Source: an uncultured Clostridia bacterium (GTDB taxonomy: Bacteria > Bacillota > Clostridia > TANB77 > CAG-508). From it: a stretch of DNA of 64,000 nt. The number at the start of each line of letters is the position of its first letter. Positions within the stretch are counted from its first letter, which is position 1. Positions 4,845 through 5,137 of this stretch are shown piece after piece. The DNA is taken from assembly GCA_963559365.1 (NCBI GenBank), contig CAUWKC010000002.1, positions 19,023 through 83,022 on the forward strand, given 5' to 3'. The notes under the pieces were generated by a model. It did not search any database and had not been told where the DNA came from. It saw nothing but the letters and a program-made list of their open reading frames with translations. The translations under genes and the position numbers were made by a program.

Positions 4845-4881
4845 CCTTTGAGACAGTGGGGACAGTCTTAATTTGTCTCAC
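4845..4881. repeat. left arm of the ~36-bp inverted repeat pair (CCTTTGAGACAGTGGGGACAGTCTTAATTTGTCTCAC)
   Basis: The reverse complement of 5102-5137 matches this arm in 34 of 37 aligned columns (one indel, two mismatches). Confidence 0.85.
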
Positions 4882-4926
4882 TTTTTTGTAGAAAAATGTC
4901 AAAGTTTCGTTTTTTAAACCTAGTTT

Positions 4927-4962
4927 TACCCTGCTAGGATGGTATGTTATCCTAGCAGGGTA
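4927..4962. other. perfect 14-bp GC-containing hairpin inside the IR-bounded segment
   Basis: taccctgctaggat (4927-4940) pairs with atcctagcagggta (4949-4962) across an 8-nt loop. No T-run follows on either strand, so it is not an obvious intrinsic terminator. Confidence 0.7.
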
Positions 4963-5101
4963 AACTTCAATTCAAAAAACAGAAACTTGAAACAAGAACA
5001 ATCTGTACAAAAAAAGAGAAATGTTATATAATAGGAACAAAATGGGCATGATTGAAAAATTATAGCATTTTAATGCACTTACATGCCCCGTATTTGTTCG
5101 T

Positions 5102-5137
5102 GTGAGACAATTTAATACTGTCCCCACTGTCTCAAGG
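5102..5137. repeat. right arm of the inverted repeat pair; it overlaps the murE ribosome-binding site
   Basis: GTGAGACAATTTAATACTGTCCCCACTGTCTCAAGG runs directly into GAGGAAAAAATG, the murE start. Confidence 0.85.

Follow-up and report, generated by a model that had tools for sequence, protein, structure and literature searches.

What lies between the divergent genes dapL and murE of an uncultured Clostridia bacterium: a promoter that can be flipped, a mobile element that arrived as a unit, or something else? The question was raised by a first-pass annotation of a 64-kb stretch of contig CAUWKC010000002.1 (hereafter the window; positions count from its first letter unless another locus is named), which reported inverted repeats of about 36 bp around some 220 bp with outward-facing promoter-like elements. 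The segment at 4845-5137 was taken there for a candidate phase-variable inverton, a miniature inverted-repeat transposable element (MITE) or a long-range RNA stem. Our data suggest another answer. The two arms are most likely separate solo copies of a REP/REPIN-like palindromic repeat, linked to a transposase of the REP-associated tyrosine transposase (RAYT) or 'TIRYT' kind, and they bracket the original murE promoter. We assign this reading a probability of roughly 78%.

Geometry of the dapL-murE spacer

dapL (3554-4753, minus strand; LL-diaminopimelate aminotransferase) and murE (5146-6651, plus strand; MurE) diverge from a common spacer. A repeat search placed the arms at 4848-4881 and 5102-5135. 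They are 34 nt long, complementary at 32 of 34 positions (94%) and 220 nt apart, in agreement with the first description; the earlier arm limits (4845-4881 and 5102-5137) take in 2-3 extra flanking bases and require one gap. Among inverted repeats within 600 bp, this pair ranks strongest across the whole window. Both arms have the form TGAGACAGTGGGGACAGT-N7-TGTCTCA and were recovered by nhmmer with a profile of 35 arms (left arm, plus strand, E = 2e-12; right arm, opposite orientation, minus strand, E = 1e-10). Their variable 7-mers, CTTAATT on the left and ATTAAAT on the right, differ at two positions. The left arm carries GGGGACAG, a motif of the GGGGWSAS type. The 17-mer core of the arms, GAGACAGTGGGGACAGT, occurred three times in the window at up to 3 mismatches, where 0.04 occurrences were expected. 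A third arm in the window, a degenerate solo copy (TGGGACAAATTAACCTGTCCCTACTGTTTCA), lies on the minus strand at 46881-46911 between two minus-strand genes. There, the gene at 46901-47734 (minus strand) ends at a TAG that arises within the arm, and the AGGAGG and ATG (46866-46868) of the next gene follow directly past it.

At the dapL-murE spacer, both arms sit tightly against expression signals, as had been noted. Six bp separate the left arm from the -35 box of dapL (TTGACA, 4841-4836, minus strand). The right arm is placed in the 5' leader of murE and passes directly into AGGAGG (5136-5141), followed by the ATG at 5146; ribosome-binding site and start codon together span 5136-5148 on the plus strand, and the relatives discussed below have a weaker GAAAGGA, 12-13 nt before the ATG. 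Between the arms, a promoter scan returned the reported TGTACA-17-TATAAT at 5004-5032 with 10 of 12 matches, as the sole good sigma-70-like site on the plus strand, and we attribute it to murE. The promoter-like site of dapL, TTGACA-17-TATAAA at 4813-4841 on the minus strand, was read from sequence and alignment; it is host sequence kept in relatives, and the scan omits it since the final base of its -10 hexamer is an A. The extended -10-like element TGCTATAAT (5059-5067, minus strand) was likewise read directly in the sequence, where it is present as described; no -35 box was found for it and the scan did not call it. The perfect 14-bp hairpin earlier placed at 4927-4962 (stem 4927-4940 / 4949-4962) was found as well, inside a longer imperfect hairpin of 92 nt (4899-4990). 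A 51-aa open reading frame (ORF) on the minus strand (4972-5127), considered as an interior gene, had no family match.

This geometry already bears on one of the first proposals, a long-range RNA stem that would occlude the murE ribosome-binding site. It is not supported, since the murE promoter is downstream of the left arm, which is therefore absent from the murE transcript.

Orthologous spacers

The host and the inserted parts of the spacer were distinguished in an alignment of eight orthologous dapL-murE spacers (loci fetched for comparison carry L numbers). On contigs with identical MurE or DapL, the 392-bp spacer was identical. The arrangement was also the same in L031 (MurE 99% identical), whose spacer differs from that of the window by five single-nucleotide polymorphisms, and in L038 (MurE 95%), whose spacer has a 16-bp deletion. 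In five distinct relatives (L034/35/36/42, L037, L039, L040; MurE 82-85% identical), the spacers measured 98-162 bp and both arms were absent. These empty orthologous sites were observed directly, and the murE promoter was kept in all five relatives. Four of them have TTGTCAAGA[G/C]TCTGTACA...TATAAT as a contiguous stretch (in fuller form ...TTGTCAAGA[G/C]TCTGTACAAAAAAAATAAAAAGTT[A/G]TATAAT...), with the -35 box of dapL adjoining the murE promoter; the dapL promoter (TTGACA-17-TATAAA, minus strand) thus stands back-to-back with that of murE. In L039, the murE promoter was kept and the upstream gene and sequence were different. The contiguous host sequences of the relatives map to 4835-4842 and 5002-5032 in the window.

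As judged from this alignment, the promoter bracketed by the arms is host DNA: it is that of murE, ancestral and with its orientation unchanged. Since it is present in relatives without arms, the 293 bp at 4845-5137 are therefore not one element, as had been assumed, and the alignment points to two insertions in the lineage of the window. Insertion 1, with approximate limits at 4846-5000, comprises the left arm, its extension and the 92-nt hairpin and lies between the -35 boxes of dapL and murE. CAAG at both of its edges is the only candidate for a target-site duplication (4 bp). Insertion 2, at 5040-5135 with an uncertain left limit, lies in the murE leader and comprises a leader hairpin, GTATTTGTTCGTG and the right arm; the extended -10-like element falls within it.

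A single 293-bp MITE, inserted as a unit with its own outward promoters, would have explained the terminal inverted repeats, and the arms are apparently mobile, with multiple copies in other genomes. This part of the MITE proposal stands. The unit itself does not: the interior promoter is orthologous host sequence in the five arm-less relatives, and the remaining interior appears unique. It did not recur in the window or in the fetched loci outside the species, and blastn of the two interiors against the other loci returned AT-rich noise, with the exception of a 15-nt extension beside the arm. Moreover, the window arms differ in the 7-mer that true doublets of the family keep identical, and a clear target-site duplication is absent. 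We consider a MITE of this extent highly unlikely.

A decayed arm was also sought in the leaders of the arm-less relatives. GGAAAGGACTGTTCTTA in L040 has AGGACTGT in common with the arm, a match too short to judge.

The repeat family

Both arms belong to a dispersed repeat family, which was observed directly. In a scan covering a single GTDB genome for each species, the pattern GAGACAGTGGGGACAGT-N7-TGTCTC matched 23 stretches of about 8 kb each in six genome bins, all assigned to uncultured Clostridium sp. or Clostridia. These 23 loci hold 33 exact arms, or 35 when the two arms of the window are counted, and a profile search added degenerate copies. One genome bin (CAMNWO01) supplies at least 17 of the exact arms. 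An arm consists of TGAGACAGTGGGGACAGT, a variable 7-mer and TGTCTCA, usually followed by TTT, and forms on its own a 7-bp stem with an 18-nt loop. One subfamily extends inward with regularly spaced motifs of the TTGTC type. The left arm of the window has such a conserved extension, CTTTTTTGTAGAAAAATGTCAAAG (4882-4905, plus strand), which we count in the repeat unit: 15 nt of it, TTTGTAGAAAAATGT, are identical and at the same position beside arms in L021 and L028, two rabbit-gut bins, and similar extensions occur in L008, L014, L017, L019, L025 and L043. A literature search for the arm core returned a single match, an unrelated Drosophila paper.

Most arms are paired in inverted doublets, typically 29-104 bp apart; one doublet has a spacer of 289 bp, and the value for the window is 222 bp. 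Nine of the 11 doublets pair without a mismatch along 32 nt, although 8 variants of the inner 7-mer are found among these nine and 10 among all arms. Both sides changed in 8 of the 32 arm-to-arm pairs, and 99.1% of the cells were paired, a level that none of 500 shuffles reached. The doublet arms thus show compensatory changes, which point to a hairpin, and the doublets indeed folded as near-perfect hairpins of single-stranded DNA (z = -15 to -19). The formation of hairpins by doublets was, like the over-representation in extragenic space that characterizes REP-type repeats, found for this family. The pair of the window is unlike a doublet in that it encloses host DNA, has two mismatches and accounts for 2 of the 3 unpaired cells in the doublet comparison.

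In three loci, the palindrome grows outward beyond the arms (L016 5687-5910, L024 7503-7713, L012 233-457), with partial units TGAGACAGTGGG occurring two or three times per side, which suggests stepwise growth or nested insertion.

Every arm copy lies in an intergenic region, close up against genes. In 6 of the 35 arms, the terminal TGA is the stop codon of a long ORF, and in 6 more the ORF ends 3-9 nt short of the arm. The arm was also considered as a carrier of the ribosome-binding site, because a CTCCTT/AAGGAG in use directly adjoins 6-7 of the 35 arms; dense packing from stop codon to ribosome-binding site explains this equally well.

These properties have to be weighed against the proposed inverton, in which recombination between the arms would flip the 220-bp segment and turn the murE promoter alternately toward murE or dapL. 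The geometry is a fitting one, with 34-bp inverted repeats bracketing a real promoter and an extended -10-like box on the minus strand of the segment, and any two inverted repeats can recombine in principle. However, the 10 assembled contigs, which stem from 10 samples and include the diverged strains L031 and L038, had a single orientation. The short doublet spacers and the sites at gene ends that are typical of this dispersed family do not suit a switch, the longest exact match between the two window arms is just 19 bp, and the promoter appears to be older than the repeats. Furthermore, murE is essential, so that switching it OFF would be lethal without a second promoter. The window had no tblastn match to one large serine recombinase and two Y1 transposases; this check is limited to these queries within the window and not exhaustive, and a recombinase gene could lie elsewhere in the genome. 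Scans of JGI metagenomes with the left flank plus arm and with a generic arm had no matches and are hence uninformative on orientation. Phase variation at this locus is thus not supported, and we regard it as very improbable.

The transposase-like gene

A direct link between the arms and a transposase-like gene was observed in L017, where a gene at 6391-7137 encodes a 248-aa protein lying between arms. The protein matches Pfam Y1_Tnp (IS200-like) with 34.7 bits against a cutoff of 23, and its sole NCBIfam match is 'REP-associated tyrosine transposase' (62.8 bits, E = 3e-17). It has about 970 homologs of some 250 aa with a C-terminal helix-turn-helix (HTH; matches to Pfam HTH_8 or HTH_7), each found on few contigs. 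Many homolog copies lie on contigs of 1-2 kb, as expected if flanking repeats break assemblies. The HUH motif (H60, H62) and Y120 of CIKYIHMNPVKA (YIHMNPV motif) were invariant across 24 homologs. Against the PDB, a family profile found the E. coli TnpA-REP structure 4ER8 with E = 1e-3 and ISDra2 TnpA with E = 0.3; the profile was required, as a PDB search with the single sequence of the homolog P0138 returned nothing.

The gene order recD2 (yrrC) - transposase-like gene - comFC is the same in L017 (5686-7988), in L043-48 (62% protein identity) and in L049-54 (53%), and inverted arms flank the gene in all three. In the last group, the arms have diverged together with it, and the GGGGWSAS-type motif reads GGGGACAC in the arms of L049 where other arms have GGGGACAG. 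From these comparisons, the transposase-like gene of the family is taken to be single-copy and vertically inherited. P0138 (L043-48) and the window organism stem from the same studies, with one run (ERR318691) in common, and P0138 may be the organism's own copy. No such gene was found in the 64-kb window by tblastn with the two Y1 transposases. An autonomous element was also looked for between distant arms in L009 and L016, where the ORFs proved ordinary (DUF3810-like protein, adenylate kinase, SecY, M18 peptidase); among the ORFs between distant arms, a transposase was found in L017 only.

The HTH raises the question of whether the arms could instead be binding sites on double-stranded DNA, for the transposase-like protein or another regulator, which would repress or loop the murE promoter and co-regulate dapL and murE. 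The domain is conserved in the 250-aa family, the GACAG and TTGTC motifs are regularly spaced in the arms, and one arm abuts the dapL -35 box, the other one the murE ribosome-binding site. On the other hand, 12 of the 35 arms lie at gene 3' ends and others between tandem genes, not at promoters, the covariation from arm to arm fits a hairpin and not a fixed duplex motif, and the relatives regulate dapL and murE without arms. Such a function therefore seems improbable to us. An even bolder version, to which we give slightly less credit still, would have the tyrosine transposase and HTH protein domesticated, with the dispersed arms as genome-wide handles through which it loops, silences or occasionally inverts the murE promoter. 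If true, this would tie the expression of dapL and murE, and with it the path from diaminopimelate to peptidoglycan, to the activity of the repeat system.

Hairpins, murE leader and neighbouring features

The 92-nt hairpin at 4899-4990 had a folding energy of -25 kcal/mol as single-stranded DNA (z = -7.3), and no second copy of it was found in the window and the fetched loci. In L031, the paired positions 4928 (A>T) and 4961 (T>G) are both changed, so that a T.G/U.G pair is retained in the plus strand alone, a hint that the inner hairpin may matter as a single strand of the plus orientation.

The leader hairpin GGGCATG (5044-5050) / CATGCCC (5083-5089) was present in the RNA fold of the murE leader. 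The 16-bp deletion of L038, shared by L059 (MurE 95%), covers 5067-5082 between CAT microrepeats and removes part of the loop of this hairpin; the GGGCATG/CATGCCC stem stays intact and the minus-strand TGCTATAAT survives. The leader also holds an upstream ORF of 10 codons (5073-5105; ATG CAC TTA ... GTG TGA); its stop codon coincides with the TGA that terminates the right arm, probably fortuitously.

A role of the right arm as a co-opted leader hairpin would be compatible with the arms being solo repeats and could hold additionally. The right arm would then tune murE translation or mRNA stability, and the left arm together with its T-run would block read-through on the plus strand. The RNA fold carries the arm hairpin over AGGAGG and AUG, the left arm was called terminator-like (GGGACAG...TTGTCTC, then CTTTTTTGT), and effects of REPs on the stability of mRNA and on termination are known (PMC3733652). 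The leader fold was, however, no better than that of shuffled sequences (z = -1.5), single arms fold weakly (-3.8 kcal/mol) and L038 tolerates the deletion in its leader. We hold the proposal to be unlikely.

At Rfam gathering thresholds, the whole window returned two tRNAs and nothing else; their genes are adjacent on the minus strand (58708-58864). A permissive Rfam scan of 4700-5250 gave sub-threshold microRNA-like matches on the hairpin and no known riboswitch or leader. A divergent intergenic region at 24725-24821 contains TGACA-N5-TGTCG twice (TGACATTTTTGTCG, TGACAAAAATGTCG) and has no arm in its vicinity; the two motifs look like the TTGTC/TGTCG motifs beside arms and could represent a binding site or the decayed interior of an element. 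murE (plus strand) and dapF (minus strand) converge, and their 3' ends overlap by 33 bp (6619-6651), whereas a gap of 28-80 bp separates them in L034, L037 and L040.

Origin of the arrangement

If the arms are solo copies of the repeat, the arrangement may have arisen as follows. One copy, consisting of the arm, its extension of about 25 nt and the 92-nt hairpin, would have landed between the back-to-back -35 boxes of dapL and murE. A second copy would have entered the murE leader in reverse orientation, immediately ahead of the ribosome-binding site. The geometry of an 'invertible promoter' would then have come about incidentally, through two insertions of the repeat. As in REP/RAYT and IS200/IS605 systems, the transposase-like protein, acting on single-stranded hairpin DNA, probably deposited the copies. 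Any consequences for murE and dapL would be side effects. The divergent promoters would have been moved apart by about 150 bp with the loss of a shared upstream A/T tract, the murE leader would have been lengthened from about 35 to about 105 nt, and a small arm hairpin would have been set beside a new, stronger AGGAGG site. The left arm, in addition, resembles a weak terminator on the plus strand.

Several points weigh against this reading. The arms do not have the GTAG tag of classical REPs, and the NCBIfam RayT score of 62.8 is under the curated cutoff of 80. The link between the window organism and P0138 rests on shared samples only. The abundance of the family was measured in other species, and the window organism shows three copies in 64 kb. 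We found no strain with just one of the two insertions, and we infer the order and the independence of the two events. The closest outgroup (L032/L033, MurE 87%), moreover, has a rearranged locus. Finally, this reading does not account for the 92-nt hairpin or for that of the murE leader.

The rearranged locus itself deserves a description. Compared with the window, a segment with murE and a transglycosylase gene is inverted between dapL and a GH94 gene in L032 (1-6104) and L033, and dapF is not there. A degenerate arm, TTGAGACAGTAGGGACGGTCCAAAGTGTCTCAAG (L032 2071-2104), lies at the junction of the GH94 gene and murE and overlaps the called murE start, and L033 has a gene for a large serine recombinase just upstream. 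A repeat-associated rearrangement is possible.

Inverted repeats around a promoter mimic a phase-variation switch, and the present work removes murE as a tempting false positive. Inverton screens of gut metagenomes should filter such repeat families. The data further outline a REP/REPIN-like family in uncultured low-GC gut Clostridia, together with a single-copy partner that has an added HTH and a fixed position between recD2 and comFC; systems of this kind have hardly been described in gut Clostridia so far. The repeats are packed tightly against genes, sometimes provide the stop codon and lie beside ribosome-binding sites, and may therefore affect the expression of their neighbours, including the essential murE.

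Comparison with known systems

Classical MITEs and Correia elements resemble the family in being small, non-coding and multi-copy, with terminal inverted repeats, and in lying near or within transcription units. They differ in their transposase, which is of the DDE and not of the HUH tyrosine type, and no clear target-site duplication was seen here. Invertons, such as the flgB and cwpV switches of C. difficile or the promoters of Bacteroides, have inverted repeats of about 20-35 bp that bracket a promoter segment of about 150-300 bp upstream of a gene, as does the murE locus. Here, the repeats are generic and dispersed and the promoter predates them, one orientation was seen in 10 assemblies, and the queries tried found no recombinase in the window.

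The REP/REPIN-RAYT systems, known as BIMEs in E. coli and REPINs in Pseudomonas, share more features with the family: short, multi-copy extragenic palindromes, mostly as inverted, hairpin-forming doublets with solo copies besides, and a single-copy, vertically inherited HUH/Tyr transposase gene flanked by repeats, for which TnpA-REP (4ER8) is the closest solved structure. REPIN doublets show compensatory changes, and singlets are their remnants (Bertels & Rainey 2011, PMC3116915). Clostridia are among the reported hosts of group 1 RAYTs (Bertels et al. 2017, PMC5581495). There are also differences. The family has no terminal GTAG, which appears only in degenerate copies through GTGG>GTAG, and its arms form a 7-bp stem with an 18-nt loop instead of a tight REP stem. 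The protein of about 250 aa has an extra C-terminal HTH and scores below the NCBIfam RayT cutoff. The hosts are uncultured gut Clostridia instead of Proteobacteria, and the copy number is apparently in the tens instead of the hundreds.

The family also resembles TIRYT, RAYT-like genes flanked by long terminal repeats with a common GGGGWSAS, whose repeats occur singly, as dimers or grouped (Di Nocera et al. 2013, PMC3733652). Here, too, a RAYT-like gene has long inverted flanking repeats that share this motif (GGGGACAG), and moderately abundant repeats occur as singles, dimers and groups. The terminal TGA supplies stop codons, as described for the ends of GTAG REPs (PMC3733652). TIRYT/TIRtron elements were described in Acidobacteria, Stenotrophomonas and others, and the present family is found in Clostridia. 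By its repeats, their shared motif and their place around the gene, it matches the REP/REPIN-RAYT type and more precisely the TIRYT/TIRtron variant.

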